Assembly (NCBI GenBank): GCA_964544495.1
Contig: CAZJBY010000005.1
Span: forward strand, 11,081 to 75,080
Length of the DNA: 64,000 nt
Direction of reading: 5' to 3'
DNA from: an uncultured Candidatus Bathyarchaeia archaeon
Lineage (GTDB): Archaea; Thermoproteota; Bathyarchaeia; Bathyarchaeales; Bathycorpusculaceae
Shown here: positions 3,701 through 61,381 of the stretch, piece after piece
Position numbering within the stretch: the first letter of the stretch is position 1
Layout: every line of letters starts with the position of its first letter
Program-made: the position numbers and the translations under genes
Notes under the pieces: model-generated
What the model saw: only the letters and a program-made list of their open reading frames with translations
Told to the model about the DNA's origin: nothing
Databases searched by the model: none

Positions 3701-4453
3701 ATGAGAGAAAATCCTGAGTCAAAAAAAGTTGGCATAATAGGCTGCGGCGCCATCGGCACACTAATAGCGGAAGCAGCAGAACGAAAACTGGTCATGTGCG
3801 ACGAGGTGATTCTCTACGATTACGCGGCGGAAAAGACGGAAAAGCTCAGAAGCTCCCTGCGTTTTCCTGTGACTGTCGTGGCAAGTTTGGATGAGATGCT
3901 CAGGCTCAAGCCCAAGGTTATAGTGGAAGCAGCGTCACAGCAAGCTGCCCGAGAATATGTGGAGCGCATAGCCTCCGCGGGCATCGATTTGATTGTGATG
4001 AGCACAGGCGCACTTCTGGACTTGAACGTGCAGAGCAGCAAGGTTCACGTGCCATCTGGGGCTATTGGCGGATTGGACGCGCTTTCAAGTGCGGCTTTAG
4101 CTGGAATAGACGAGGTTGTATTGACTTCGCGGAAAAATCCACGCGCGTTCGAACTGAATAACAAGGAACCAAAAGTCGTGTACGAGGGCAGTGCTGAAGA
4201 GGCGGCGCGGCTTTATCCGCGGGAAATGAACGTTGCCGCCACTCTGGCTTTAACCGTTAAACCCGCAAAAGTGAAGGTGCAAGTGGTTTCCGACCCAGCG
4301 GTGCAACGCAACACACACGAGTTCACGGTGAAATGGCGGTTTGGCGAGATGTTCCTGCGGTTTGCGAATGACCCGCATCCCGAGAATCCGCGAACCAGCG
4401 CGTTGGCTGCTTGGTCGGCGATCAGGCTGCTTCAAAAGCTTTTGGAAACGTGA
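3701..4453 (+). CDS. nadX: L-aspartate dehydrogenase
   Basis: 250 aa. Rossmann N-terminus VGIIGCGAIG and PSGAIGGLDAL motif typical of NadX. Confidence 0.75.
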   Translation: MRENPESKKVGIIGCGAIGTLIAEAAERKLVMCDEVILYDYAAEKTEKLRSSLRFPVTVVASLDEMLRLKPKVIVEAASQQAAREYVERIASAGIDLIVMSTGALLDLNVQSSKVHVPSGAIGGLDALSSAALAGIDEVVLTSRKNPRAFELNNKEPKVVYEGSAEEAARLYPREMNVAATLALTVKPAKVKVQVVSDPAVQRNTHEFTVKWRFGEMFLRFANDPHPENPRTSALAAWSAIRLLQKLLET

Positions 4454-5000: not shown

Positions 5001-5032
5001 TTTATATAAGGGGGGTATAGACTGTTCCGAGC
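5001..5032 (-). repeat. G6-TATAGAC intergenic cassette, copy 1 (subtype B)
   Basis: The + strand reads TTTATATAAGGGGGGTATAGACTGTTCCGAGC. Read on the - strand it starts 15 nt after the stop of the radical SAM gene. Confidence 0.8.
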
Positions 5033-7643: not shown

Positions 7644-8015
7644 TTAGGGAGTTGGTGGAGTCTTCAGGATGTTTGTCATGAAACCTCTGATTTTCTCGCT
7701 GGCTTCAAGTAGCGTGTTTATTGTTTTGCTGCCTTTCTGCGTGAGTTTGTAGACTCTTTTTCTTTCTTCCCATACTCCTTCGACGAGACCGTTTCTTTCA
7801 AGAGAGTATAGTAGCGAGTATACGGTGCCTGAGCTGACGAGCAGGTTAAATTTGTTGTGGATGTATGAGATGACATCGTAGCCGCTGAGAGCGCAGTTTC
7901 TTAACTCGGTCATTATTATTATATCCATGAAGTTTTTGATTATGCGCTCATGCATTTTCTTCAGGACTTTGCTTTCTAATCGTCCATTGCTAAGTATTGC
8001 TGTTGACGTTGCCAT
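7644..8015 (-). CDS. PadR-family transcriptional regulator
   Basis: 123 aa. YDVISYI...SSGTVYSLLYSLERNGLVEG...RKRVYKLTQKG is the classic PadR winged helix. Confidence 0.8.
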   Translation of the reverse strand: MATSTAILSNGRLESKVLKKMHERIIKNFMDIIIMTELRNCALSGYDVISYIHNKFNLLVSSGTVYSLLYSLERNGLVEGVWEERKRVYKLTQKGSKTINTLLEASEKIRGFMTNILKTPPTP

Positions 8016-10510: not shown

Positions 10511-10556
10511 CGCTTAGAACTGTTGCGATTTTTTGTCTATACCCCCCTTATTTAAA
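10511..10556 (+). repeat. G6-TATAGAC cassette, copy 2 (subtype A with T6 run)
   Basis: CGCTTAGAACTGTTGCGATTTTTTGTCTATACCCCCCTTATTTAAA, starting 16 nt after the GT2 stop. Confidence 0.8.
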
Positions 10557-10688: not shown

Positions 10689-11036
10689 TTATGTTGGTGT
10701 TTTGGCGCAGTTGCCTGTTTCTTTGGAGTTTTCGACTGCGCGCTTCAGGTTTCTGCGGAACTGCTTCAGGTCAACTGAGCCGTTGATGATTTTGAGGAGT
10801 TTAAGCAGAACCAGTGTTTTTTCGTTTTCGTAATTCAGGCTGATGATTCGGTTGTGGCCAGCGTGTTGCTGCGTGACGACGCCTTCCTGTTCCAGAACGT
10901 GCAGGTTGCGGTTGACTTCGTTGTAGTTGCTGTTGGCGGCGCGCACCAGCTTCATCATGGTGACGTGCTTTTTCTCCGATAGTGCTGTCAGGATTTTTCG
11001 GCGGCACGCTGACGCCAGGATTTTGCTTTGCTTCAT
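10689..11036 (-). CDS. winged-helix (ArsR-like) transcriptional regulator
   Basis: 115 aa. RRKILTAL...MKLVRAANSNYNEVNRNLHVLEQEGVV matches the HTH plus wing pattern. Confidence 0.65.
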   Translation of the reverse strand: MKQSKILASACRRKILTALSEKKHVTMMKLVRAANSNYNEVNRNLHVLEQEGVVTQQHAGHNRIISLNYENEKTLVLLKLLKIINGSVDLKQFRRNLKRAVENSKETGNCAKTPT

Positions 11037-11286: not shown

Positions 11287-11647
11287 TTTTTTATTGTGTG
11301 GTCTTCTTTTTCTTGCGTTTTGTGAAGTACACTATGAGTGCGAGGCATATGGCTGTGGCTGATGCCACGGCGGAGGCGGCGATCAGTTGGCTTGTCGGGA
11401 GCTGCTCTGGCTCGGTTATGGTGAAGGTTGTGGTTTCTGAGTTGCCTGGGTTTCCGAACTGGTCCCAGCCGTAAACGGTCACGTTGTGGCTTCCCGCTGT
11501 CAACCCACTGAGCGTCGCGTTTCCGTTGATGGTGATGTTGTCTTGCGCGTCCAGGCTGTATTGCAGCTGTGAGGTTTTCTCGTTTGTTGTGAGCGTCAGC
11601 GCCACGTCCGACGTGGAGTACGCTTGTGGGTACGGCGCCAGGATTCC
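11287..11647. repeat. 361-bp perfect inverted repeat, partner of 45715-46075
   Basis: Base-by-base comparison shows it is the identical reverse complement. It covers the C-terminal Ig-like domain, TM anchor, stop codon and 4 nt beyond. Confidence 0.9.
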
Positions 11648-12181
11648 TATACGGAGAGGTTTTAGGTCTACCGCGAAATTGGCTGTTGAAGAACCATTTA
11701 TCATGAACCTTGCTCCTGTGTAAGGCTTTGTGTTAAGAACGTATTCGCCGTAATAGACCGCGGTGACCGTGAGAGAGAATGGACCCTGAGGTATCTCTTT
11801 CAGCTCAAACGTGCCAGAGAATTCTTCCCACACGAGCCCGTGAGGTAGGTCTTGGAAAACGTACACTTCGTCTTGCAGCCAGCTTGCCGAATAATAAACC
11901 TCGATAAGATTGCTAAGAACAATGTCCGGACCGTGTATTGGTGTGACAGTGTAGGTTATCTTGATTGGTGGCGAGGCATATTTGGTGCCATTCTGCAGGT
12001 TCAATATGGAGACCCTGGGCGGAGTGGTTGTTGATTCCGGAGCCACCCACCCCGAGTCTATCCACGGATTGGCTTTTGCAACGTTTACAAGCAGAGCCCC
12101 TGCCAAAGCCAAGATCAACAACACCGCTAGTAGTGTTGCTGTGATTTTTTTTATGTTGCCTGTGTTATTGGAGCTGAACAT
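11291..12181 (-). CDS. surface-protein family paralog (signal peptide, Ig-like domains, C-terminal TM plus basic tail)
   Basis: The ORF is open to 12199 (GTG). ATG 12181 gives MFSSNNTGNIKKITATLL..., which aligns with the paralog at 45176. YSLDAQDN..LSGLTAGSHNVTVYGWD motif. Ends ...IVYFTKRKKKKTTQ. Confidence 0.8.
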   Translation of the reverse strand: MFSSNNTGNIKKITATLLAVLLILALAGALLVNVAKANPWIDSGWVAPESTTTPPRVSILNLQNGTKYASPPIKITYTVTPIHGPDIVLSNLIEVYYSASWLQDEVYVFQDLPHGLVWEEFSGTFELKEIPQGPFSLTVTAVYYGEYVLNTKPYTGARFMINGSSTANFAVDLKPLRIGILAPYPQAYSTSDVALTLTTNEKTSQLQYSLDAQDNITINGNATLSGLTAGSHNVTVYGWDQFGNPGNSETTTFTITEPEQLPTSQLIAASAVASATAICLALIVYFTKRKKKKTTQ

Positions 12182-12245
12182 GTGACATTGCCCCTGCACT
12201 GGTTCTCCATTCAGAATTAAAGTGGGGGTTGTGTTTAAGGGGTTC

Positions 12246-12286
12246 TGTCAAGGTTTCTTGACCTGGCTTAGTCAACATTTCTTGAC
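12246..12286 (-). promoter_or_regulatory. dual-palindrome operator, copy 1
   Basis: TGTCAAGGTTTCTTGACCTGGCTTAGTCAACATTTCTTGAC, 64 nt upstream of ATG 12181. Confidence 0.7.
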
Positions 12287-29371: not shown

Positions 29372-31327
29372 TTAACGCCTGCGTTTCTTGAAGTAGAATA
29401 GTATACCCGTAGTGACAGCAACTGCCGAAACTGCAACGGCGACCACGATGAAAGTTATTGGGAAAGGCTCTGACTCTGCTACTGTGAACGTGATTGTTTC
29501 GGAGGCTTCTACGTTGCCTGCCCCGTCCCAAGCGTACACTGTCAAAGTATGCTCGCCACTAGTCAGCCCAATCAGCGTTGTGTTCCCAGCCACTGTTACG
29601 TTGTCTTGTCCGTCTAAGCTGTACGCGACTTTCGAAAGAGTCTCGTTCACGTTGAAAACTAGTGACACATCAGGCGCGTCGTACGCTTTGGATTCTGGAG
29701 ACAAAATCAGAACACGCAGCGCCGTTTCTTCTGTGGGTTCTCCTGCTTCGTCGTCTATGTTTTCTGGGGTTTCTTCACGTGGCGGGGGAGTGCTTAGAGT
29801 GATGGCATCTGAGTACGTGATGGATTCTACACCTGCGTTGTCCCTGAATTGAACATAAACGGTTTTGGAGCCGTCGCCTGATGTAAGCGTCCAAACCTTA
29901 GTATCTGCGTAATCTTCCCAACCTGTCCAATTTATGCCGTCGTTGCTGAAGTGCATCTGAGCTACACCAGAAACGTCCTCTGCTGAGAGAGTTAAAACCA
30001 CTGAGCGTTGTCTGGTTGAGGCTGCGCCGCCATTAACCGTTATTGAACCTGTTGGAGGAGTTGTGTCAACGATGAAGTGTCTTGCGTGTGAAGCTTCTAT
30101 GTTGCCTAAGGTGTCGTTCGCATAAATAACCACGTAATGCCATCCGTCAGGCAAGTCGGGTAAAGTTGTGTTACCCGTGATTGTTGCATTTGGCTGCCCA
30201 TTTAAGCTGTAGCCAATCCAGCTGTCAAATCCATCAACCGTGAACGTTAAGGGAATCCTGGCGCTTACGTTGTATATCTTGTTTTGTTCTGGAGAAACAA
30301 CATTAACAGCAGGCGGCACGGGAACGTACCCAAAAGGCGTGTACCGTTCATTTGCGTCAGATAGACGCAACACGTTTTTGTCTTCTCCTCCTATCGCGTA
30401 TAAAAGGTCATCCACAACTGCAACACTCAAAAAGTGTCTTGGTGTAGGCATTTCTGCACCAACGCTCCATGTTTCCGTTTCAGTGTCAAAGACCTGAGTT
30501 AGCGGTCCACGTTTTATGAGCCCAGTTTCGGGGTCCACTTCATCGGAGTAAACGTTCCCTCCTATGAGGTAGATTTTTTTCGCCGCATAAACACCTGTTG
30601 TTGCCACTCCCGCCTCATAGGATACATGGTAAGACATGGAAGGCCCATAGCGCCACGTGTCTGTTTGGGGGTCGTAAATCTGGGTCTCATTGTTACCACT
30701 GCCTGTGTTTCCGAAAACGTAAATTTTGTTGTCTACAACAGCTGATATACAGTAAGCAACAGCAGTTGGGAGCGGGGCCATCGTGGTCCACGAATCATTA
30801 ACGGGATCATACATTTCATTTACATTTGAACGAAACGGGGTTCCAAGGAAAAAGGTGTCGAATCCACCTATGAGGTAGATTTTGCCGTTAACTGTGCATG
30901 CTGTTGCAGTGGTTCTCGGTGTAGGGCTTGGAGTTTTTGTTGCCCAAGAATCGGTCGCGGTGTTATAAACTTGGTTTAATTCCCATCCGAAACAATAAAT
31001 TTTGTTTTGGTAAACAGCTGCACCAGAACCACCGTCTACCGTGGCGCCATTAGGTTGTGGTATGGGGGTTTTGGTTGTCCAAGTGTTAGTTATGGGATCA
31101 TACATTTCGTTAACATCGGTGGCTCCTGACATTACTTGTCCTCCGATAGCGTATGTTCTTCCTCCAACTACGCCGATGCCGATTCCAGTTCTGGCCGTGG
31201 GCATAGAAGCCATAATTGCCCAAGAATTCTCTGCTTGATCTGCTAAGGCTGGCTTCACTGAAAGCGTGCCAGCCATGGCCGAAGTCAGCAACACCAACAC
31301 GATGACTGTAGCCAGCACCCTTTTCAT
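29372..31327 (-). CDS. Kelch-repeat surface protein of the paralog family
   Basis: Signal peptide, at least 5 Kelch-like blades (YAIGG, IYCFGW, IYLIGG, IYVFGN, LYAIGG), three Ig-like modules (YSLNGQPN..., YSLDGQDN...GEHTLTVYAWD), and EPFP-TM-FYFKKRRR. Confidence 0.8.
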   Translation of the reverse strand: MKRVLATVIVLVLLTSAMAGTLSVKPALADQAENSWAIMASMPTARTGIGIGVVGGRTYAIGGQVMSGATDVNEMYDPITNTWTTKTPIPQPNGATVDGGSGAAVYQNKIYCFGWELNQVYNTATDSWATKTPSPTPRTTATACTVNGKIYLIGGFDTFFLGTPFRSNVNEMYDPVNDSWTTMAPLPTAVAYCISAVVDNKIYVFGNTGSGNNETQIYDPQTDTWRYGPSMSYHVSYEAGVATTGVYAAKKIYLIGGNVYSDEVDPETGLIKRGPLTQVFDTETETWSVGAEMPTPRHFLSVAVVDDLLYAIGGEDKNVLRLSDANERYTPFGYVPVPPAVNVVSPEQNKIYNVSARIPLTFTVDGFDSWIGYSLNGQPNATITGNTTLPDLPDGWHYVVIYANDTLGNIEASHARHFIVDTTPPTGSITVNGGAASTRQRSVVLTLSAEDVSGVAQMHFSNDGINWTGWEDYADTKVWTLTSGDGSKTVYVQFRDNAGVESITYSDAITLSTPPPREETPENIDDEAGEPTEETALRVLILSPESKAYDAPDVSLVFNVNETLSKVAYSLDGQDNVTVAGNTTLIGLTSGEHTLTVYAWDGAGNVEASETITFTVAESEPFPITFIVVAVAVSAVAVTTGILFYFKKRRR

Positions 31328-32490
31328 GTGTCACTCCTTTTCCCTTTGCGCTTTAAGAAGTAGGTTACCAACCCGAGGGTGACCAAAGCGGCTGAAGCGA
31401 TTATGGCTGTGGAGATCCATTTTGGGAAAGGTGCTAAAGCTTGCTGAACAGGCGGAGTGGTCGTTTTCTGCGTGGGCGATTCGCTTGGTGAGGGAGTAGA
31501 AGACGAGGGTGATGGTGCCTTTGGTTCAGCGGGAGGCGTACTTATTGAAGGTAAAGACTTTTCGTTTGGAGCTAAAGTTACCTCCTGCAGTGCATCTCCA
31601 ACATCAAAAATTATCGTTTCTGATGCGCTGATGATTCCAGTTTCATACCAAACGTAAACCGTCACATTGTGGTGTCCAAAGGCTAATCCTGTAAGCAGTT
31701 CGCTCCCTGTAAAAACCTCTCTGGTGAACAGGTCTCTGCCAAGGACCTCTTCAATGTGGACAGCATTTATTGGAACAGTAACGTTTTCCTTCCCGTCCAG
31801 ACTGTAGGTGGCGTTTGAAACTGGGTAATCCATCGAAAACTCTAATTCCACATCAGTTACATTGTAACTTCGGTTTCTAGGAGAAACAACGTTGATTTCA
31901 GAGCCGTCGGTGACCATGAAGGTTATAGTACAAAGAGCCTGATAGAGAGTGTGTGCGTAAGCTATGTTTTCTTCGAGTGAGGGACCACAATAAATAGTTA
32001 GGTAATGCTGTCCTGCAGACAAAGCAGGCAAGATTGCTGTGCCTCTGATAAAATATATCGCGTATGTGCCGCCTTTCAGATAATTTGAAGGCACGGGCAC
32101 ATCCTCCTTTCTCAGGAGCGTTAAGTTAACTTCTCGCATGTCACTTCTCGGTTCAGTGATGATACTGCCGACCCGACCATCTGGCGCATAGGCTTGTTCT
32201 TCTCTCCACCCATCGCCAAACTTCAGGGTTGCCCGGTCGCTGATTGTAAGTTCGTCCAAAGTGAAGCAGTAACTTCCCCCATCAGGGGGAGGTCCATACG
32301 TGTTTTGCACTATAAACGACAAATAAACTGGGTTTTTTGTTGTTTCTTGTGGGAACTCCACTGAAATTGTAATGCAGCCTGGTGCCGCATAACCTGTGTC
32401 TCCCGCTACAAAAGGCTTTACCGAAAGTTCTCCAGCCAACGCTGAAAAAATCAACACCGCAAGCGCAGCTAAAGCGCAGGCTCTTCTCAT
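31324..32490 (-). CDS. surface-protein family paralog with an S/T/P-rich stalk
   Basis: Signal peptide, YSLDGKENVTV...GHHNVTVYVW, P/S/T linker, APFP-TM-YFLKRKGKR. ATGA overlap with the next gene. Confidence 0.75.
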   Translation of the reverse strand: MRRACALAALAVLIFSALAGELSVKPFVAGDTGYAAPGCITISVEFPQETTKNPVYLSFIVQNTYGPPPDGGSYCFTLDELTISDRATLKFGDGWREEQAYAPDGRVGSIITEPRSDMREVNLTLLRKEDVPVPSNYLKGGTYAIYFIRGTAILPALSAGQHYLTIYCGPSLEENIAYAHTLYQALCTITFMVTDGSEINVVSPRNRSYNVTDVELEFSMDYPVSNATYSLDGKENVTVPINAVHIEEVLGRDLFTREVFTGSELLTGLAFGHHNVTVYVWYETGIISASETIIFDVGDALQEVTLAPNEKSLPSISTPPAEPKAPSPSSSTPSPSESPTQKTTTPPVQQALAPFPKWISTAIIASAALVTLGLVTYFLKRKGKRSDT

Positions 32491-33278
32491 GTTTTATTCT
32501 TCCTCCTCTTGACTCTGGCAAAATAAGCTACAAACCCGAGAGTGACTATGGCAACTGAAGCGACTACGACTGTGGCGGAAAATACTGGGGAAGTTTCTGC
32601 TTGAGGTTCTGTTGGCTGGGTCGCCTGTTGCGTTTCTACTTTGAACGTGATTGGTTTGGATGTTCCTGTGGAGCCTGTGGTGTCTTCCGCGTGGACTGTT
32701 ATGGTGTGTGTTCCGTCTGGGATGCCGTAGAGGGTGGTGTTTCTGGTGATGGTGACGGGTGCTTGGTCGTCTAGGCTGTAGCTTAGCCAGTTGGTGGGTT
32801 CGGAGACGGAGAAGTTTAACTGGATCTTGGTTGTGTGGTAGGTTTCTGCTGGTTTGGGCTCCAGAACTGAGACGCGTGGCGCGGCGGCATTAACGGTGAA
32901 AACCACCTCGTTAGAGATACCCGAGGTCTCTACGATGCCCCATAGGGGGCCTAAATTGTAAGTAAGGTGAACACCTATGCGCAACCTATGAGTGCCTTCG
33001 GATAACTGTGTTGGCCAAGACTGCAATCTTCTGTCGTCCAGGATGTAAGTGCAATACTGGTTAGACAGCCATTTTGAGTAATCTGGCTCCGTCTCTACTG
33101 TGAAAGCCACGGGAACCTTGCTGCTACTGTACATTTTGCTTTCTGGAAGCTGAATTGTGACCGATGCTGGAGGTAGGTATGGCGTTGCATTCGCTGCTGC
33201 AAAATTAACGAGTAAGGCTCCAGCTAATGCTAAAAACAGTAGCGTTAACACAAAAACAACGGCGTAGACTCTTTTCAT
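32487..33278 (-). CDS. surface-protein family paralog
   Basis: Signal peptide LALAGALLVN, YSLDDQAPVTI...GTHTITVHAED, TM-AYFARVKRRKNKT. ATGA overlaps on both sides. Confidence 0.75.
   Translation of the reverse strand: MKRVYAVVFVLTLLFLALAGALLVNFAAANATPYLPPASVTIQLPESKMYSSSKVPVAFTVETEPDYSKWLSNQYCTYILDDRRLQSWPTQLSEGTHRLRIGVHLTYNLGPLWGIVETSGISNEVVFTVNAAAPRVSVLEPKPAETYHTTKIQLNFSVSEPTNWLSYSLDDQAPVTITRNTTLYGIPDGTHTITVHAEDTTGSTGTSKPITFKVETQQATQPTEPQAETSPVFSATVVVASVAIVTLGFVAYFARVKRRKNKT
32607..32912. repeat. 306-bp perfect direct repeat, partner of 59764-60069
   Basis: Identical sequence in both paralogs. It covers the C-terminal Ig-like domain only. Confidence 0.9.
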
Positions 33279-34081
33279 GATGCGCTCCTCTTTTTATTGC
33301 GCCGAACAAAGTACGCTACCAGCCCAAAAGAAATTACTACAGTTGAAATGACTATGGCAATAGCAATCAAGGTTGTTGCTAAAGGGGTGGGGATGTTCAC
33401 GTCAAAGGTCGCCTTCTCGGATGCGCCTGTGTTTCCAGCCTCATCACTGGCGTACAAGACAAGCGTGTGCCTGCCACTCGACAAGCTAGCCAAAGTAGCG
33501 TTGCTAGTTATTGACACGTTCTTCATGTCATCAAGACAGTAGACCATTTGAGAAGCAGGCTCACTCAACGTAAACGTCAACGTCACGTCAGATGCGATGT
33601 ACAATGATGGCTCAGGGGACAAAATCTTGACTCTCGGTCGAATAGCGTCAATTGTGAAGGTTACAGCACTGGAATACCCCTCGTAACTGGGGATTTTCCA
33701 TTCACCGATTTCTTGCCAAGTTGTCACTCGGATAGTCAGATTGTGGACGCCATTGGACAATCCTGATAACGTTGTACTGTACGCTGAGCCGTTGAATTCT
33801 AGAGAGAAAGCCACAACTTCCTTTTTATCCAACACGTAGCTGTATTCTGGCGACTGCAACTCAATGGAGCTGCCAGTTGATGACGTGTACATGAAGGCTA
33901 CTGAAACGGTTTGAGGGTATGTCCTGTTATTTTGTGGTGACACCACGTTGACATTCAACTGGAAGTCGTCTCCCATTGCCAAATCAGTAAAAAAATTTCC
34001 AGCTAATGCTGAAATCAGAAAAGCAGAGAGTAGAGTTACCATCAGGATTTTACTTTTACCGCGTAAACTCTTGCCAAGCAT
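33275..34081 (-). CDS. surface-protein family paralog (first gene of the four-gene operon)
   Basis: ATG at 34081 (TTG at 34084). Signal peptide, VYCLDDMKNVSI...GRHTLVLYASDEAGN, TM-AYFVRRNKKRSAS. Confidence 0.75.
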   Translation of the reverse strand: MLGKSLRGKSKILMVTLLSAFLISALAGNFFTDLAMGDDFQLNVNVVSPQNNRTYPQTVSVAFMYTSSTGSSIELQSPEYSYVLDKKEVVAFSLEFNGSAYSTTLSGLSNGVHNLTIRVTTWQEIGEWKIPSYEGYSSAVTFTIDAIRPRVKILSPEPSLYIASDVTLTFTLSEPASQMVYCLDDMKNVSITSNATLASLSSGRHTLVLYASDEAGNTGASEKATFDVNIPTPLATTLIAIAIVISTVVISFGLVAYFVRRNKKRSAS

Positions 34082-34148
34082 CAATCGTAATGCCCCTTTG
34101 TTTATTCTCCGTGGTAATTCTAGGTTTTCTGTGTGTTATAGCCTTTTT

Positions 34149-34189
34149 TGTCAAGGTTTCTTGACCCAGCTTAGTCAACATTTCTTGAC
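34149..34189 (-). promoter_or_regulatory. dual-palindrome operator, copy 2
   Basis: TGTCAAGGTTTCTTGACCCAGCTTAGTCAACATTTCTTGAC, 67 nt upstream of ATG 34081. CTATAACACACAG lies between the two. Confidence 0.7.
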
Positions 34190-34333: not shown

Positions 34334-34378
34334 TTTATATAAGGGGGGTATAGACAAAAAAACGCAACAGTTCTAGCG
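34334..34378 (-). repeat. G6-TATAGAC cassette, copy 4 (subtype A with T7 run)
   Basis: The + strand reads TTTATATAAGGGGGGTATAGACAAAAAAACGCAACAGTTCTAGCG, in the divergent region between the surface operon and hsp20-rpl15-secY. Confidence 0.8.
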
Positions 34379-34910: not shown

Positions 34911-35333
34911 ATGCCACACAAACTAAGAAAAACCAGAAAAATGCGCGGCAGCCGAACACACGGCTACGGCAGAATAGGCCAACACAGAGACGCAGGTTCA
35001 AAAGGACATCGAAAAGTCGGACGCCACAAGCATTTGTGGAGCTACGTTGTGACACATGAACCCGACTACTTCGGCAAAAAAGGCTTCACGTCACCCCAAA
35101 GCCTAAAACGCAAAGAAAACACCATCAACCTCAAACAACTCAACAACTTAGCCGTTGAAAAGGACACCGCAAACGTAAACCTGACAAGCCTAGGCTACAC
35201 CAAACTCCTCGGCACAGGCAAAATCGCAAAACCCCTGACCATAACCGTACCTTCATGCTCCAAATCCGCAGCAGAAAAAATAAAAAAAGCTGGCGGAAAA
35301 ATCCTAACCCAGTCCAAGGAAAACGGAGAGTAG
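34911..35333 (+). CDS. rpl15: 50S ribosomal protein uL15
   Basis: KLRKTRKMRGSRTHGYGRIGQHR...KLLGTGKI. Confidence 0.9.
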   Translation: MPHKLRKTRKMRGSRTHGYGRIGQHRDAGSKGHRKVGRHKHLWSYVVTHEPDYFGKKGFTSPQSLKRKENTINLKQLNNLAVEKDTANVNLTSLGYTKLLGTGKIAKPLTITVPSCSKSAAEKIKKAGGKILTQSKENGE

Positions 35334-35342
35334 CATTAATCA

Positions 35343-36758
35343 ATGGCTGGAAGATTCCTAAGCCTCTTCAAACCGCTCGGAAGAGTACTGCCTGAAATCA
35401 AAGTCCCCGAACGCAAAGTCGGCTTCAACGAAAAAATCTTCTGGACCGCCATAGTCCTCATCGTCTACCTCGTCATGTCCGAAATCACACTCTACGGAAT
35501 CTCCAGCACAGTAACAGACCGATTCAGCCAACTAAGAGTAATCTTCGCCTCAAACCGCGGCACCCTCATGGAACTCGGCATAGGCCCCATAGTCACCGCA
35601 GGCTTAATCCTGCAACTGCTATCCGGCTCCGCCATCATACAATGCGACATGTCCGATCCTCAAGACAGAGGCTTGTTCACCGTCGCAAGCAAATTCTTCT
35701 CTATACTTCTCACGGGAATCCAAGCGTCAGCTTACATAATAAGCGGCATGTACGGCAGCCTAGCAGGACCCACGACAATAGTCATCTTCATACAGCTTTT
35801 AGGCGCTGGAATAATCGTGATGCTCATGGATGAGCTTGTGCAGAAAGGCTGGGGACTAGGCAGCGGAATCAGCCTCTTTATCATGGCTGGGGTTGCGCAG
35901 AACATTCTCTGGCAAGCGTTTAATCCTGGCACTGGCTTGTTTGTGGGTTCGCTTTCTACGCTTTTGCGGGGTCAACAATCGTATGGATTAACGGAGTGGA
36001 TACTTGGCGCAGGGTCTTATCCGTCTTTGCTTGGGTTCATAGCGACGATCGGCACGTTCCTGATAATTATTTACTTGGAAGGTGTCAGGGTTGAGTTGCC
36101 GATGACCTACGCTGGGTACAAGGGGTTCCGCAGTCGCTATCCAATCAAGCTCTTGTACGTGTCAAACCTTCCAGTTATTTTCGCGTCTGCGCTTTTCGCT
36201 AATGTTTACTTCTTTTCTCAGCTTCTGTGGAGCCAGATGGGTGCACCTGCTCCTGGGACGAACATTTTCTTCCAGTTTTTAGGCGATTATAGTCAAAACG
36301 CTACGACAGGGACTGTGACGCCTGTTGGCGGTTTAGCTTATTATGTAACTCCACCTCAAAATATTATCAGCGTAGCGGCTGAGCCTATACGGGCTTCGGT
36401 TTATTTGGTTATTCTTGTGGCTTTCTGCGCGGTGTTTTCGCTTATTTGGCTTGAGGTTGGCGGTCTTGGACCTGATAAAGTTGCTAAACAGCTTATGGAT
36501 TCAGGTATGCAGATTCCTGGTCACAGGCGTTCTGGAAGGCCTATTCAGGCGATTCTTAAACGGTATATTCCTGTGGTTACGGTTCTCGGCGGATTAATCG
36601 TAGGTTTGATTGCTGGACTTGCGGATTTCCTAGGGGTTTTCGGTACAGGAACAGGAATCCTGCTTTCGGTGGGCATAATTTACCAGTACTACGAGTTGCT
36701 GATGCGTGAAAGAGCAGCGGAGATGTTCCCAGCTTTCAGAAGAATCCTAGGCGAATAG
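35343..36758 (+). CDS. secY: preprotein translocase subunit SecY
   Basis: 471 aa with 10 TM helices. IFASNRGTLMELGIGPIVTAGLILQLL. Follows L15. Confidence 0.93.
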   Translation: MAGRFLSLFKPLGRVLPEIKVPERKVGFNEKIFWTAIVLIVYLVMSEITLYGISSTVTDRFSQLRVIFASNRGTLMELGIGPIVTAGLILQLLSGSAIIQCDMSDPQDRGLFTVASKFFSILLTGIQASAYIISGMYGSLAGPTTIVIFIQLLGAGIIVMLMDELVQKGWGLGSGISLFIMAGVAQNILWQAFNPGTGLFVGSLSTLLRGQQSYGLTEWILGAGSYPSLLGFIATIGTFLIIIYLEGVRVELPMTYAGYKGFRSRYPIKLLYVSNLPVIFASALFANVYFFSQLLWSQMGAPAPGTNIFFQFLGDYSQNATTGTVTPVGGLAYYVTPPQNIISVAAEPIRASVYLVILVAFCAVFSLIWLEVGGLGPDKVAKQLMDSGMQIPGHRRSGRPIQAILKRYIPVVTVLGGLIVGLIAGLADFLGVFGTGTGILLSVGIIYQYYELLMRERAAEMFPAFRRILGE

Positions 36759-36773
36759 CCGTAAGACTATAGC

Positions 36774-36806
36774 GCTCGGAACAGTCTATACCCCCCTTAT
36801 TTATAG
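36774..36806 (+). repeat. G6-TATAGAC cassette, copy 5 (subtype B)
   Basis: GCTCGGAACAGTCTATACCCCCCTTATTTATAG starts 16 nt after the secY stop. A partial inverted copy GGGGTATAGAA lies at 36824-36834. Confidence 0.8.
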
Positions 36807-45069: not shown

Positions 45070-45110
45070 GTCAAGAAACCTTGACTAAGCCAGGTCAAGA
45101 AACCTTGACA
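45070..45110 (+). promoter_or_regulatory. dual-palindrome operator, copy 3
   Basis: GTCAAGAAACCTTGACTAAGCCAGGTCAAGAAACCTTGACA, the reverse complement of the other copies, 65 nt upstream of ATG 45176. Confidence 0.7.
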
Positions 45111-45234
45111 AAAACTCTTAAATCGAACGCGAGTCTTTAATTTTATAAGAGGAATGAGCACAGAGGCAACATAAGATGTTCCTCTCCCAAAAGCCAGACA
45201 ACACAAAAAAACCTTCACAGCAACACTAGTCACA

Positions 45235-46071
45235 GTGCTGTTGACCTTGGTCTTAGCGTGGAGTCTGCTTGTAAACATAACAGAAGCCGACCCTATTTTA
45301 GACATGGGAGAAGTGCCTCCGAAATCGACAGCGGTCCCGCCAACAGTACTCATCCTGGACCCTCAAAACAACACTACAACCAGCACATCCAACATCTGGC
45401 TCGCTCTCAAAATTACCCCTGCGCGAGACCCTATCGCCAGGAGGCGGTGTAATCTTGTTGAAGTTTATTATTCGGCAAGCTGGCAACCGAACAAAGTGAC
45501 TGTTTTCAACGATGACGCTGGCGGATATGTGGTAGACGTTTGGCAAAATGAAATTGAACTGAAAAAGATACCGCAAGGCGTAAACTCCGTGACAGTTACA
45601 GCGGTTTATTATGGAGAATATTATCCTTACAAGTATCCCTACGCAGAAGCCTATTTCACGATAAGCGGTTCTTCAACCGTTACTTTTGCCGTAGACCTCA
45701 CCCCGCTCCACATCGGAATCCTGGCGCCGTACCCACAAGCGTACTCCACGTCGGACGTGGCGCTGACGCTCACAACAAACGAGAAAACCTCACAGCTGCA
45801 ATACAGCCTGGACGCGCAAGACAACATCACCATCAACGGAAACGCGACGCTCAGTGGGTTGACAGCGGGAAGCCACAACGTGACCGTTTACGGCTGGGAC
45901 CAGTTCGGAAACCCAGGCAACTCAGAAACCACAACCTTCACCATAACCGAGCCAGAGCAGCTCCCGACAAGCCAACTGATCGCCGCCTCCGCCGTGGCAT
46001 CAGCCACAGCCATATGCCTCGCACTCATAGTGTACTTCACAAAACGCAAGAAAAAGAAGACCACACAATAA
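45235..46071 (+). CDS. surface-protein family paralog, with the N-terminus out of frame with its ATG (A7 tract)
   Basis: The ORF from GTG 45235 aligns with 11291-12181. The homologous ATG 45176 is in the +2 frame and would join if the A7 run (45205-45211) were A8. Confidence 0.7.
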   Translation: MLLTLVLAWSLLVNITEADPILDMGEVPPKSTAVPPTVLILDPQNNTTTSTSNIWLALKITPARDPIARRRCNLVEVYYSASWQPNKVTVFNDDAGGYVVDVWQNEIELKKIPQGVNSVTVTAVYYGEYYPYKYPYAEAYFTISGSSTVTFAVDLTPLHIGILAPYPQAYSTSDVALTLTTNEKTSQLQYSLDAQDNITINGNATLSGLTAGSHNVTVYGWDQFGNPGNSETTTFTITEPEQLPTSQLIAASAVASATAICLALIVYFTKRKKKKTTQ

Positions 46072-58055: not shown

Positions 58056-58967
58056 TCATGTTAGGCTTCTCTTTTTCCTGGCTCTCACAAAATAAGCTGC
58101 CAGACCAAAGAAAACCAAGGCGGTTGAGGTGATTACGGCGACAGCGACCGTTGAAGTTGGGAAAAGTGTTGAAGCCTGCTTCGTCTCAGATGACGCTTCC
58201 TGGGCTATGGTGAAGCTGAAGGGTTCGGACGCGCCTCTGTTTCCAACCGCGTCTTCCGCGTAAACGGTTAAGCTGTGCTCGCCAGCAGGCAAGCCGTTCA
58301 GCACCAGTTGGTAGTTGACTGCGCCAAACCGTTCGGTTGACGCAACTTGGTCGGTGGCGGTGACTATGTTGTTTCCGTCTAGGCTGTAACCCAGCCACGC
58401 AACAGGCTCGTTCACCGTGAAGTTCAAAGGCACATCCGACGCCTCAAACGTTTCTTGGCTTGTTAGAACACGAATGCTTGGAAGGCTAGTGTCAACAGTG
58501 AAAGAGGCAGTCTCAGAACCACTCAAGTATTCGTCAAGTCTGTACATTTCACGGTAACCCCCGTTTCCGTCTCCCATTCTGAAGATTTGGAAACAATGAA
58601 CACTCATCCATATCTTGATGCTGTGCTCTCCATCTGATAGCCCGGTTAAAGCAACCGAGTAGCTTTTGGGCAGGTCTTCCCCAGCATGCTGCCCCACCAG
58701 CTTTCCGTCTAACCAGTACTGAACCGACAACACCTTACCGCAAAACCATGGATTAATGGGTTGGGCATTAGAATACCCTATGGTAGCGTAAAACTGTAGG
58801 GGAATTTCGCCCGTGTTGTACACCATATTTTTTATGGGGGACTGCACCTTGATAACAACCGTTTCGGGGTCAGGCATTATCGGATTTGCAGACACACTGT
58901 CGATAAATGTTACCGCCAATACTGAAATCAGCAACGCCAAGCTCAAAGCTACGAGGGCTCGTTTCAT
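58056..58967 (-). CDS. surface-protein family paralog
   Basis: Signal peptide ...SVSANP, GYSLDGNNIV...GEHSLTVYAEDAVGN, LFPT-TM-AYFVRARKKRSLT. Confidence 0.75.
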   Translation of the reverse strand: MKRALVALSLALLISVLAVTFIDSVSANPIMPDPETVVIKVQSPIKNMVYNTGEIPLQFYATIGYSNAQPINPWFCGKVLSVQYWLDGKLVGQHAGEDLPKSYSVALTGLSDGEHSIKIWMSVHCFQIFRMGDGNGGYREMYRLDEYLSGSETASFTVDTSLPSIRVLTSQETFEASDVPLNFTVNEPVAWLGYSLDGNNIVTATDQVASTERFGAVNYQLVLNGLPAGEHSLTVYAEDAVGNRGASEPFSFTIAQEASSETKQASTLFPTSTVAVAVITSTALVFFGLAAYFVRARKKRSLT

Positions 58968-59647
58968 GCTGGGCTTCTCCTTTTGCGCCTTAGAAAGTAA
59001 GCCACCAAACCAAAAGAGACCACAGAGACCGAGGCGACTATGGTAGTATCGATCAACAGAGTCGGGAAATGCGTTATTGCTTGTGTTGCAGGCTGAGCTA
59101 AGGTCGTAAACGTGAATGTTGAACTGACAGAAACGTTATTCCAGAGATTGAGATGGCGACAATATAGAGTGTAGGCTTCAACGTTAACCGTCAGGGTGTG
59201 AGAGCCTGAAGGCAAGGAACCAACATTCTTGCTGTAGGTAAATACTCTGGAATAGGTGTCTTTAAGTACTTCCAACCCTTGGCGTCCGTACACAGTGCTA
59301 TTCCGTAGGATTTGGGTTTGGTCAAGAGTACAAGTGACCGATTTAATTTGGCCTACGAACACGGACCATTTGCTTGTAAATGAGTATACGTTGGCGGTGG
59401 AGGTCCATTTCCATGTTTCAGGCATGAACACTCTGAAACCTATGCTTGTTTCATTCTGGGTTGGTATTCCGTCCACAGGTGAAATCAAAGTTACGGTGGG
59501 CAGGTCGGTTACAGGCTGCGTCTCAAAACCATCGAAGAGATACGAGTACGCCACATTCGGATTTGCTTGCACCAGTTTTGCGAAGCTTAATCCAGCGATC
59601 AACGCTAAAAATAGCAGCACCAAAACAACCGCAAAAATTCTCTTCAT
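58964..59647 (-). CDS. surface-protein family paralog
   Basis: Signal peptide ...LVQANP, GSHTLTVNVE, HFPT-TM-AYFLRRKRRSPA. ATGA overlaps. Confidence 0.7.
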   Translation of the reverse strand: MKRIFAVVLVLLFLALIAGLSFAKLVQANPNVAYSYLFDGFETQPVTDLPTVTLISPVDGIPTQNETSIGFRVFMPETWKWTSTANVYSFTSKWSVFVGQIKSVTCTLDQTQILRNSTVYGRQGLEVLKDTYSRVFTYSKNVGSLPSGSHTLTVNVEAYTLYCRHLNLWNNVSVSSTFTFTTLAQPATQAITHFPTLLIDTTIVASVSVVSFGLVAYFLRRKRRSPA

Positions 59648-60474
59648 TTTGTCCTCCTCTTTTTTCGATTTTGGAAGTAAGCTACTAGTCCAAAGGAGAT
59701 GGCTGCAACTGAAGCTACAACGGAAGAGGCGATCAACGTGGCTGGGAAAGGTGCCGGTTGAGATTCTGTTGGCTGGGTCGCCTGTTGCGTTTCTACTTTG
59801 AACGTGATTGGTTTGGATGTTCCTGTGGAGCCTGTGGTGTCTTCCGCGTGGACTGTTATGGTGTGTGTTCCGTCTGGGATGCCGTAGAGGGTGGTGTTTC
59901 TGGTGATGGTGACGGGTGCTTGGTCGTCTAGGCTGTAGCTTAGCCAGTTGGTGGGTTCGGAGACGGAGAAGTTTAACTGGATCTTGGTTGTGTGGTAGGT
60001 TTCTGCTGGTTTGGGCTCCAGAACTGAGACGCGTGGCGCGGCGGCATTAACGGTGAAAACCACCTCGTTGGATCTGCCAGAGACCTCTATGGTATTGCTA
60101 TAACCCCAGAGGCGCAATACGTAAACAAGGTCAACTCTTATGCGCAACTTGTGAGTGCCCTCAGATAACTGCCTCGGCAAAGAAGCGAAGTACCTGCCAT
60201 CCAGAATGTAACTGCGATGTTCACTAACCAGCCATTTTGCATAAACTTGCGCCGTCTCGACTGTGATAAACACGGGAACCCTGCGGGTATTGTACATTTT
60301 GCTTTCTGGAAGCTGAATTGTGACTGATGGTGAAGGGATGTTTTGGTAGATGCCCATCGGATTCGCTGTTGCCAAATTAACGAGTAAGGCTCCAGCTAAC
60401 GCTGAGGCTAGTAGCGTTGAGATTAAAGTTGCCGTTACGGTTTTTCTCTTTATGCCTACACTTCCATAGAGCAT
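59644..60474 (-). CDS. surface-protein family paralog (first gene of the three-gene operon)
   Basis: The ORF is open to 60504. ATG 60474 follows AAGGAAG and restores the 66-nt operator spacing seen at the other loci. APFP-TM-AYFQNRKKRRTK. Confidence 0.75.
   Translation of the reverse strand: MLYGSVGIKRKTVTATLISTLLASALAGALLVNLATANPMGIYQNIPSPSVTIQLPESKMYNTRRVPVFITVETAQVYAKWLVSEHRSYILDGRYFASLPRQLSEGTHKLRIRVDLVYVLRLWGYSNTIEVSGRSNEVVFTVNAAAPRVSVLEPKPAETYHTTKIQLNFSVSEPTNWLSYSLDDQAPVTITRNTTLYGIPDGTHTITVHAEDTTGSTGTSKPITFKVETQQATQPTESQPAPFPATLIASSVVASVAAISFGLVAYFQNRKKRRTK
59764..60069. repeat. 306-bp perfect direct repeat, partner of 32607-32912
   Basis: Identical sequence, verified by eye. Confidence 0.9.
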
Positions 60475-60540
60475 CTTCCTTAATGCTCCTGCGCTTATGC
60501 GCATTTTAAACTAAGTTTTTCTGTGTGTTATAGGCTTTTT

Positions 60541-60581
60541 TGTCAAGGTTTCTTGACCTGGCTTAGTCAAGGTTTCTTGAC
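60541..60581 (-). promoter_or_regulatory. dual-palindrome operator, copy 4
   Basis: TGTCAAGGTTTCTTGACCTGGCTTAGTCAAGGTTTCTTGAC. CCTATAACACACAG lies between it and the gene. Confidence 0.7.
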
Positions 60582-60744: not shown

Positions 60745-60777
60745 GTATATATACGGGGGGTATAGACTGCACCGAGC
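60745..60777 (-). repeat. G6-TATAGAC cassette, copy 6 (subtype B)
   Basis: The + strand reads GTATATATACGGGGGGTATAGACTGCACCGAGC. Confidence 0.75.
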
Positions 60778-60835: not shown

Positions 60836-61381
60836 GTGACGCTGGATCACTACACTTACCCGAAAGAAATTGTGATAGACGAAGCTGGATGGAGCGAACT
60901 GCTGCTAGGCGTAGTAATCGGCGCCATCAAACCCCCAGACCCACGATACATGGAACGCAGAATCCCCATATCCTCCTTTCAACCGCCAAACTTCACCAAA
61001 AAAAGATACCTCGACGACGCCGTAAAAATCGCCGAAGAAATCATCGAAGTCATGCAGCCCGACGACGAAACCCACTTCAAAATCTCCTCCGCATACGTCC
61101 TCTCCAGCGTACGCAGATACCTCCAAAACCGAGGATTCAAAGTCGAAAAAGTCGACGCCACAGGCGAACTCCAACAGATGGCGGAAAGAGGCTACACAAG
61201 ATGGTGCACCGAAGTAGGCGTGCCAGCCGAGCTGCTTGAAAACAAAAGACGCTTCTGGGTACTGCTTAATTGGGTCGCTGAAAGACCCCACCTGAGGGAA
61301 AGCCTAGTGAAAACTGGATGGGCAAGCTGGCAGCGAAAATGGCGAGAAGAAATCTACAAACCTCAAAACCTGCAAGGCTAA
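60836..61381 (+). CDS. hypothetical protein
   Basis: 181-aa ORF with coding-like composition, a GTG start and no recognised motif. Confidence 0.5.
   Translation: MTLDHYTYPKEIVIDEAGWSELLLGVVIGAIKPPDPRYMERRIPISSFQPPNFTKKRYLDDAVKIAEEIIEVMQPDDETHFKISSAYVLSSVRRYLQNRGFKVEKVDATGELQQMAERGYTRWCTEVGVPAELLENKRRFWVLLNWVAERPHLRESLVKTGWASWQRKWREEIYKPQNLQG

Follow-up and report, generated by a model that had tools for sequence, protein, structure and literature searches.

A putative regulator-site array at the promoters of genes for exported proteins in Bathyarchaeia

A two-box DNA element, TTAGTCAAGAAAnnTTGACTAAnnnnAGTCAAGAAAnnTTGAC, followed at a fixed spacing by a BRE/TATA sequence, nAAAAnnCTTTTAT, is present in at least 35 species of Bathyarchaeia. 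It is probable, given its placement and the genes behind it, that this element is a promoter-proximal array of regulator sites that marks the promoters of genes for exported and cell-surface proteins throughout the class. Most likely it would serve as the docking site of a putative regulator of the cell-envelope genes. Binding by a protein is a claim we hold with considerable confidence, judged from sequence conservation, and analogy with better-known archaeal systems tips the balance, less firmly, towards activation rather than repression. An earlier note on a single 64-kb stretch of DNA (the window in what follows, that is, the whole stretch that was analysed) had read four copies of the element as the sign of a dispersed regulon of surface proteins. 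The dispersed gene set holds up, but the element is class-wide and not special to the genome of the window.

Bathyarchaeia are abundant, mostly uncultured archaea of sediments and soils, and to our knowledge nothing is known of how they control their genes. The interest of the element lies in its class-wide breadth, in the fact that its targets are, unusually, those of the exported and surface proteome, and in the handle that it offers on an uncultured group. The motif of 40 nt can be used as a sequence-only marker for the envelope and exported proteome of Bathyarchaeia, much of which has no recognisable domains. It is also a concrete probe for fishing out the regulator, and it may provide a natural, strong and modular promoter architecture for future genetic tools.

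The element and its genes in the window

A degenerate 41-mer describing the element matches the window without mismatch at 12246-12286 (+), 34149-34189 (+), 45070-45110 (-) and 60541-60581 (+), and nowhere else in the 64 kb at up to three mismatches. In 100 dinucleotide-preserving shuffles there were 0 matches, and a search for the single box GTCAAG-N4-CTTGAC with up to two mismatches returned only the eight boxes of the element. The earlier statement that the window holds four copies of a 41-bp element, absent from the rest of it, is borne out by these searches. In Rfam the window matches tRNA-Lys only, with no match at the element. The features are listed here in the direction of their genes.

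12246-12286, minus strand: dual-box element, copy 1; distal box 12271-12286 (GTCAAGAAATGTTGAC in gene direction), proximal box 12247-12262 (GTCAAGAAACCTTGAC)
12232-12245, minus strand: BRE/TATA-like segment of locus 1, starting directly past the proximal box; GAACCC and CTTAAACA (12239-12232)
11291-12181, minus strand: surface-protein gene of locus 1; open reading frame to 12199, likely start ATG 12181
34149-34189, minus strand: dual-box element, copy 2; distal box 34174-34189, proximal box 34150-34165
34134-34148, minus strand: BRE/TATA-like segment of locus 2; AAAAAGG and CTATAACA (34141-34134)
29372-34081, minus strand: operon of four surface-protein genes, locus 2 (open reading frame to 34084); 33275-34081, 32487-33278, 31324-32490 and 29372-31327
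45070-45110, plus strand: dual-box element, copy 3; distal box 45070-45085, proximal box 45094-45109
45111-45124, plus strand: BRE/TATA-like segment of locus 3; AAAACT and CTTAAATC (45117-45124)
45176-46071, plus strand: surface-protein gene of locus 3; main open reading frame 45235-46071
60541-60581, minus strand: dual-box element, copy 4; distal box 60566-60581, proximal box 60542-60557
60526-60540, minus strand: BRE/TATA-like segment of locus 4; AAAAAGC and CTATAACA (60533-60526)
58056-60504, minus strand: operon of three surface-protein genes, locus 4; 59644-60474 (or 60504), 58964-59647 and 58056-58967

Read in gene direction the element is (TTA)GTCAAGAAAyyTTGACTAAGCyrGGTCAAGAAACCTTGACA, with 24 bp between the box centres and one mismatch (GTCAAC) in the distal box of loci 1 and 2. 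The orientation to the downstream gene is identical in all four copies, as the earlier note had it, and three of the four sit between divergent genes. An A-run and a TATA-like sequence (CTTAAACA, CTATAACA or CTTAAATC) do lie between element and gene as described, starting 7 nt past the proximal TTGAC; at locus 1 this spacing equals that of the class-wide consensus TTGAC-nAAAAnn-CTTTTAT. The TATA-like sequences of the window are weak (CTTAAAC or CTATAAC), weaker than the class-wide CTTTTAT. From the element to the ATG there are 64, 67, 65 and 66 nt (12181, 34081, 45176 and 60474), and each of the four ATGs has a GGGG/GGAG-like Shine-Dalgarno sequence 8-14 nt before it. Similarity among the four upstream regions is limited to 44-71 bp around the element, and the sequence 5' of the distal box is unrelated across all four loci.

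Proteins that combine a signal peptide with a C-terminal membrane anchor and K/R tail are encoded by exactly nine genes of the window, every one of them in the four loci. Since they are the only genes of their type in the window, it was right to say that the element stands upstream of all four surface-protein loci. The nine proteins show weak matches to Ig-like domains, and there is one Kelch propeller. As an example, the protein of locus 1 has a signal peptide, an Ig-like domain, a C-terminal membrane anchor and a KRKKKK tail. In locus 2 all four proteins have the signal peptide and the C-terminal anchor, and the Kelch propeller is encoded by 29372-31327. Most of the nine have C-termini in which a conserved (P)FP motif is followed by a hydrophobic segment, then by GLVAYF and finally by 4-6 K/R residues. 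No PGF/PEF-CTERM-type sorting-signal model in NCBIfam matches these C-terminal anchors, and the shared motif may be an undescribed anchoring or sorting signal.

Locus 3 is a special case. ATG 45176 yields MFLSQKPDNTKKPSQQH and then a stop (17 codons), while the main open reading frame (45235-46071) is in a different frame; compared with locus 1 there are two extra bases after an A7 run, past which the signal peptide resumes in another frame. Locus 3 is therefore frameshifted at A7. The distances of 64-67 nt given earlier are correct, but at this locus the ATG opens 17 codons only. The 5' frameshift (45176-45240) could mean that the gene is a pseudogene, that the homopolymer was misassembled, or that slipped-strand phase variation is at work.

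Longer stretches are shared between loci as well. Loci 1 and 3 have 96% identity over 421 bp at their 3' ends (11287-11707 vs 46075-45655), the second gene of locus 2 and the first of locus 4 have 86% over 666 bp (32585-33231 vs 59742-60403), and around copies 3 and 4 the segment 45066-45114 is 100% identical to 60585-60537. This mosaic of surface-protein paralogues suggests gene conversion among dispersed loci.

The window includes secY, ribosomal protein genes and cdvA, and it is partly identical to a JGI metagenome contig. Between 28083 and 36758 the four-gene surface operon (minus strand) and an Hsp20 gene are found between S5-L30 (28083-29219) and L15-SecY (34911-36758), where they break an otherwise conserved ribosomal gene cluster. 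A second repeat, TAWATAMGGGGGGTATAGAC, is a perfect TATA box followed by G6-TATAGAC. Five copies occur in the window, where none is expected by chance.

5003-5022, plus strand: first copy of TAWATAMGGGGGGTATAGAC
10535-10554, minus strand: second copy
34336-34355, plus strand: third copy
36784-36803, minus strand: fourth copy
60748-60767, plus strand: fifth copy

At loci 2 and 4 this repeat is about 150-190 nt from the GTCAA boxes and in the opposite direction, facing the Hsp20 gene (34434) and an open reading frame at 60836. Two copies are found just beyond the stop codons of convergent genes (GT2 and secY). The repeat is also present in contigs of near relatives (L109, L114, L116, L117, L125 and L129), and there is none in the class-wide motif loci. 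Possible readings are a promoter, a small-RNA gene and a lineage-specific repeat.

Spread, anatomy and target genes across the class

GTDB representatives, with one genome per species, were scanned with the pattern GTCAA-N6-TTGAC-N8-GTCAA-N6-TTGAC. Perfect half-sites were required and the counts are lower bounds, so that the size of the regulon and the apparent invariance of the half-sites are both biased. The scan gave at least 108 stretches, where chance at even base composition would give about 0.5 (own arithmetic from 596 Gb / 4^20, for 20 fixed bases). At least 54 stretches are in at least 35 assemblies labelled Bathyarchaeota, Bathyarchaeia or MCG, with 3-4 stretches each in several Bathyarchaeia genomes, and a few further ones come from archaeal bins with vaguer labels. 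A metagenome scan with a more specific pattern added 22 stretches, several of them from close relatives of the window organism.

Some matches carry bacterial labels. In three bins, L012 (Muribaculaceae), L045 (Chloroflexia) and L086 (Acidoferrum), the full bathyarchaeal consensus including BRE/TATA is followed by archaeal-type surface proteins, and judged by this content the contigs are probably mis-binned. Pattern matches in Acidobacteriota, Myxococcota and Actinomycetota were set aside, as their inner sequence and their context differ. Contigs of Acidobacteriota and Myxococcota share another dual palindrome, GTCAAGCGTGCTTGAC-N8-GTCAAGCnTGCTTGACTAnnnnCATG, which ends at the start codon (L016, L017, L019, L023, L035, L036, L056, L085, L088, L094 and others). 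This appears to be an unrelated bacterial operator, and it is clearly conserved.

The consensus over 83 unique copies is TTAGTCAAGAAAnnTTGACTAAnCTTAGTCAAGAAAccTTGACnAAAAnnCTTTTAT. Beyond the searched bases, TTA is found 5' of the distal box at 70-83% and G-A-A-A within the distal box at 87-99%. Directly past the proximal box there is a purine-rich, BRE-like nAAAA, as part of the nAAAAnnCTTTTAT that follows the box, and CTTTTAT begins exactly 7 nt past it, a spacing that the window copies share. With the TATA box as the sole guide to orientation, GAAA stands in the distal box of 33 out of 41 copies, so the unit is oriented and not a true palindrome. The inverted repeats are limited to arms of 5 bp around an asymmetric centre (GAAAnn) that points to the gene. 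The two 16-bp palindromes of the earlier description are thus replaced, class-wide, by 5-bp inverted arms around an oriented GAAA, while the 24-bp spacing stands. All boxes are upstream of the BRE/TATA, and the boxes of all 83 copies leave both the TATA box and the predicted start site free of overlap. In four cases (L001, L003, L024 and L083) there are three units at the same 24-bp period.

In the motif loci elsewhere, start codons are found 35-100 nt past the boxes. A gene was counted as a target if it starts 15-200 nt from the boxes and reads away from them, and the other genes of the same loci were used as background. Signal-peptide-like N-termini were found in 41 of 61 targets as against 89 of 363 background genes (odds ratio 6.3, p = 2e-10), and a signal peptide combined with a C-terminal anchor and basic tail in 28/61 as against 40/363 (p = 1e-9). 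The test is conservative because the background includes operon partners of the targets. The metagenome scan agrees on the class of gene downstream. The earlier note had proposed a search of relatives for the motif and a test for enrichment before family members, and the outcome is a clear enrichment before genes for proteins with signal peptides. The folds of the targets are mutually unrelated: NosD/beta-helix (5), PQQ propellers (3), Kelch, Ig-like and one periplasmic binding protein, and many of the proteins have no Pfam match.

It is worth noting that not all targets are surface proteins. Two recurrent exceptions are a DNA-binding protein of about 320 amino acids and hemA, the gene for glutamyl-tRNA reductase (GlutR). 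Boxes are found upstream of hemA in L063, L121 and L128, and in L142/L143 it is in an operon behind a regulator gene of clade (a), described below. This links tetrapyrrole synthesis, by gene placement and for no obvious reason, to the putative regulon of the element. The idea of a regulon of surface proteins therefore needs amendment: exported and surface genes are enriched, but in other genomes a regulator gene and hemA/GlutR are included.

Candidate binding proteins

For the regulator, the earlier note had suggested a neighbour of locus 1 in the window.

10689-11036: ArsR-like winged-helix (wHTH) gene, PF25212-like

The comparison of motif loci does not support this suggestion. A tblastn run against the 60 GTDB motif loci (the 22 metagenome loci lie outside this set) gave no homologue of the gene, and there are no boxes upstream of the gene itself. 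A PadR gene at 7644-8015 was rejected as it recurs in just 2 of the 60 GTDB motif loci, and no DNA-binding domain was found in ten further neighbouring open reading frames of the window. All-against-all clustering of the open reading frames in 82 motif loci gave one recurrent family recognised as DNA-binding, P0001, which is different from the ArsR-like gene. No Lrp/AsnC gene recurs beside the motif in this clustering.

P0001 proteins have about 320 amino acids, an invariant CxxC-x7-C-x3-C motif and two winged-helix domains. The latter score weakly as ArsR/SmtB, HxlR or HVO_A0261-like, all under the family cut-offs, and comparison with solved structures gives marginal matches to the ArsR family only (HlyU and NolR; E ~0.005). 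There are 899 relatives at E < 1e-5; the best 120 of the 899 are full-length sequences with 55% identity or more, and the named ones among these are from Bathyarchaeia.

The family has two clades that differ in their C-terminal recognition helix. In clade (a), the dual box and GAGAACGCTTTTAC are found 100-195 nt upstream of nine out of nine distinct genes (L033, L039, L046, L075, L115, L142, L144, L145 and L146). In clade (b), which has 57% identity, GTCAA boxes are found at none of three own promoters. Instead there is an operator, ATGACGCCTGTCAT-ATGTT-ATGACGCGTGTCAT (ATGAC-N4-GTCAT twice), directly downstream of the TATA sequence TATTTAAAC and about 100-130 nt upstream of the regulator gene (L132-L141; in L132 at about 3870-3905). 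The neighbours of clade (b) are genes for peroxiredoxin, flavodoxin, glutaredoxin and ferredoxin-thioredoxin reductase, which, with the operator, suggests a redox-linked autorepressor. The half-site core GTCA/TGAC is common to both clades, and this fits related proteins that read related sites.

One complication comes from the SPRUCE 632 and 602 genomes, which have a clade (b) gene yet carry GTCAA boxes at surface genes (L037 and L087). Either the clades are coexisting paralogues, or the P0001 gene is a target and not the binder. Both clades are found in ERZ25039489, but this is a metagenome and not a single genome. There is no P0001 homologue in the 64-kb window. It is thus a tentative proposal, resting on gene clustering and box placement, that this four-cysteine double-wHTH protein of about 320 amino acids, found across Bathyarchaeia, may be the binder. 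If it is, a redox or tetrapyrrole signal would be linked to remodelling of the cell surface, as the hemA, peroxiredoxin and flavodoxin neighbourhoods indicate.

Mode of action and comparison with known systems

The 24-bp unit, (TTA)GTCAAGAAAnnTTGAC(TAA), presents two inverted GTCAA half-sites one helical turn apart, an arrangement that would suit a winged-helix dimer. Two such units, or three in some other genomes, would be stacked head to tail, and the last one stops at the purine-rich start of the BRE, 7 nt before the TATA box. A protein on this last unit would contact TFB/TBP, which makes activation by recruitment the most likely mode. The basal factors would be recruited to a weak TATA box, CTTAAAC or CTATAAC in the window, as with Ptr2, LysM and Ss-LrpB, and the weakness of these sequences fits a dependence on an activator. 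That a site just upstream of the BRE/TATA fits the activator type had been said before on the basis of the window, and the class-wide comparison of spacings agrees with it.

The 24-bp period corresponds to about 2.3 helical turns, which offsets each site from the next by about 100 degrees around the helix. Such a spacing would be unusual for a simple cooperative tetramer. Taken together with the three-unit arrays and the oriented unit, it means that a head-to-tail array fits at least as well as the dimer of dimers proposed earlier. In its most complete form the model would be a class-wide envelope regulon, in which a four-cysteine double-wHTH regulator (redox-, metal- or tetrapyrrole-sensing) activates its own gene, hemA and dozens of secreted or anchored proteins of unrelated structure, by forming head-to-tail polymers along oriented 24-bp units whose end lies at the BRE. 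As a whole this is speculative, and we would not give it even odds by a good distance. If true, archaea would have their first described global regulator of the cell-surface proteome, with sites arranged in a way that is also new.

Several other explanations have to be weighed. In the first, the element is a repressor operator, whose occupancy would block TFB/TBP from the BRE/TATA and keep the surface genes off until a signal displaces the repressor. The proximal box ends exactly at the BRE start, which makes steric repression possible, the ArsR-like wHTH proteins to which the candidate is related are mostly repressors, and the clade (b) operator downstream of the TATA box is typical of autorepression. 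We nevertheless judge repression to be unlikely, as the boxes are upstream of the BRE/TATA throughout and overlap the TATA box or predicted start in 0/83 copies, and the weak TATA-like sequences of the window are as expected for activator-dependent promoters. Base-exact spacing to the TATA box is moreover a requirement of activators (PMC2995911).

Considerably less probable is an extended core-promoter element, read by a lineage-specific TFB/TBP paralogue and defining a class of envelope-gene promoters. Class-wide conservation, strict orientation and base-exact BRE/TATA spacing are closer to a promoter element than to a facultative operator, but TFB/TBP do not contact DNA through inverted GTCAA/TTGAC half-sites that are one turn apart, recur every 24 bp and extend to about 55 bp before the TATA box, and the arrays of 2-3 units point to an oligomerising, site-specific binder.

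Two further readings, both very improbable, start from the mosaic nature of the surface-protein loci. The copies could have no function and simply remain from recent events of duplication or gene conversion between paralogous loci, which do swap sequence (the shared stretches of 96%, 86% and 100%). Identity collapses right upstream of the element at 4/4 loci, however, and an almost identical island of about 45 nt within unrelated flanks is not duplication debris; the cross-species data contradict this reading too, with the same element before non-homologous genes in at least 35 species. Alternatively, the boxes could be a recombination or inversion site, or a mobile repeat, that shuffles surface-protein cassettes in phase or antigenic variation. 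The sites are palindromic, the protein family is variable and mosaic, and locus 3 has a homopolymer frameshift, but no recombinase gene adjoins the loci, whose neighbours are housekeeping genes, orientation to gene and TATA box is constant with no inverted pairs around a segment, and both the sequence and its fixed spacing to the promoter are kept throughout the class. A MITE-like mobile repeat in particular, which would be lineage-restricted and scattered without regard to genes, with terminal inverted repeats and target duplications, does not fit an element that stands close to promoters and in gene orientation throughout and is conserved in at least 35 species. Least probable of all is an RNA-level element, in which transcript hairpins act as a terminator or 5'-UTR structure: a short stem is possible in each box, but across the class pairing is limited to 5 bp, and conservation covers positions 6-9 (GAAA) but not their would-be partners 10-11, so that no stem is maintained, three of the four copies are between divergent genes with a conserved TATA box downstream of the boxes, Rfam has no match there, and an oriented unit with only 5-bp inverted arms argues for protein recognition instead.

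The reading as a promoter-proximal array for an activator can be compared with systems known from other archaea. The closest parallel is with the archaeal Lrp activators Ptr2, LysM and Ss-LrpB, where a dimer site is found a few bp upstream of the BRE in a highly constrained position, where Ptr2 uses two regularly spaced sites, and where activation works by aiding TBP/TFB recruitment (reviewed in PMC2995911). As in the sites of Ptr2 (Methanocaldococcus jannaschii) and of LysM and Ss-LrpB (Sulfolobus), the element places a putative palindromic dimer site just upstream of the BRE at a constrained distance, and as in Ptr2-type sites a second box follows, 24 bp upstream in all copies. There are also clear differences. 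Lrp boxes have 13-15 bp and a symmetric A/T centre, whereas the box of the element has 16 bp (GTCAA-N6-TTGAC) and an oriented GAAA core; because box length and asymmetric centre do not fit, the element is not a member of the Lrp boxes. Unlike Lrp sites it also has a period of 24 bp, which is not 2 or 3 full helical turns, no linked Lrp/AsnC gene, and targets that are exported proteins and not metabolic genes.

In Thermococcales, regulators of the TrmB family and SurR activate from sites upstream of the BRE/TATA and repress from sites downstream of it. The TGM motif of TrmB is TATCAC-N5-GTGATA and that of SurR is GTTn3AAC. The element resembles these systems in that the position of the site relative to the BRE/TATA would predict the sign of regulation and in that one motif marks a dispersed regulon. 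It differs from them in that its motif, GTCAAGAAAnnTTGAC, is unrelated and in that 83/83 copies are upstream; membership of a TrmB/TGM regulon was rejected, as this sequence does not match the TGM motif. ArsR/SmtB winged-helix regulators such as HlyU, NolR and BigR read inverted repeats as dimers, and ArsR proteins are classically repressors released by metal. P0001 is like them in that its two DNA-binding domains score weakly as ArsR/SmtB or HxlR-type wHTH, and unlike them in being three times longer, with two wHTH domains and the invariant CxxC-x7-C-x3-C. Full-text literature searches on Bathyarchaeia promoter motifs, the HVO_A0114/HVO_A0261 families and a regulon returned no description of the element. 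By analogy with the systems above, the element is to be seen as working like an archaeal upstream activating site, with a regulon and a motif that are new.
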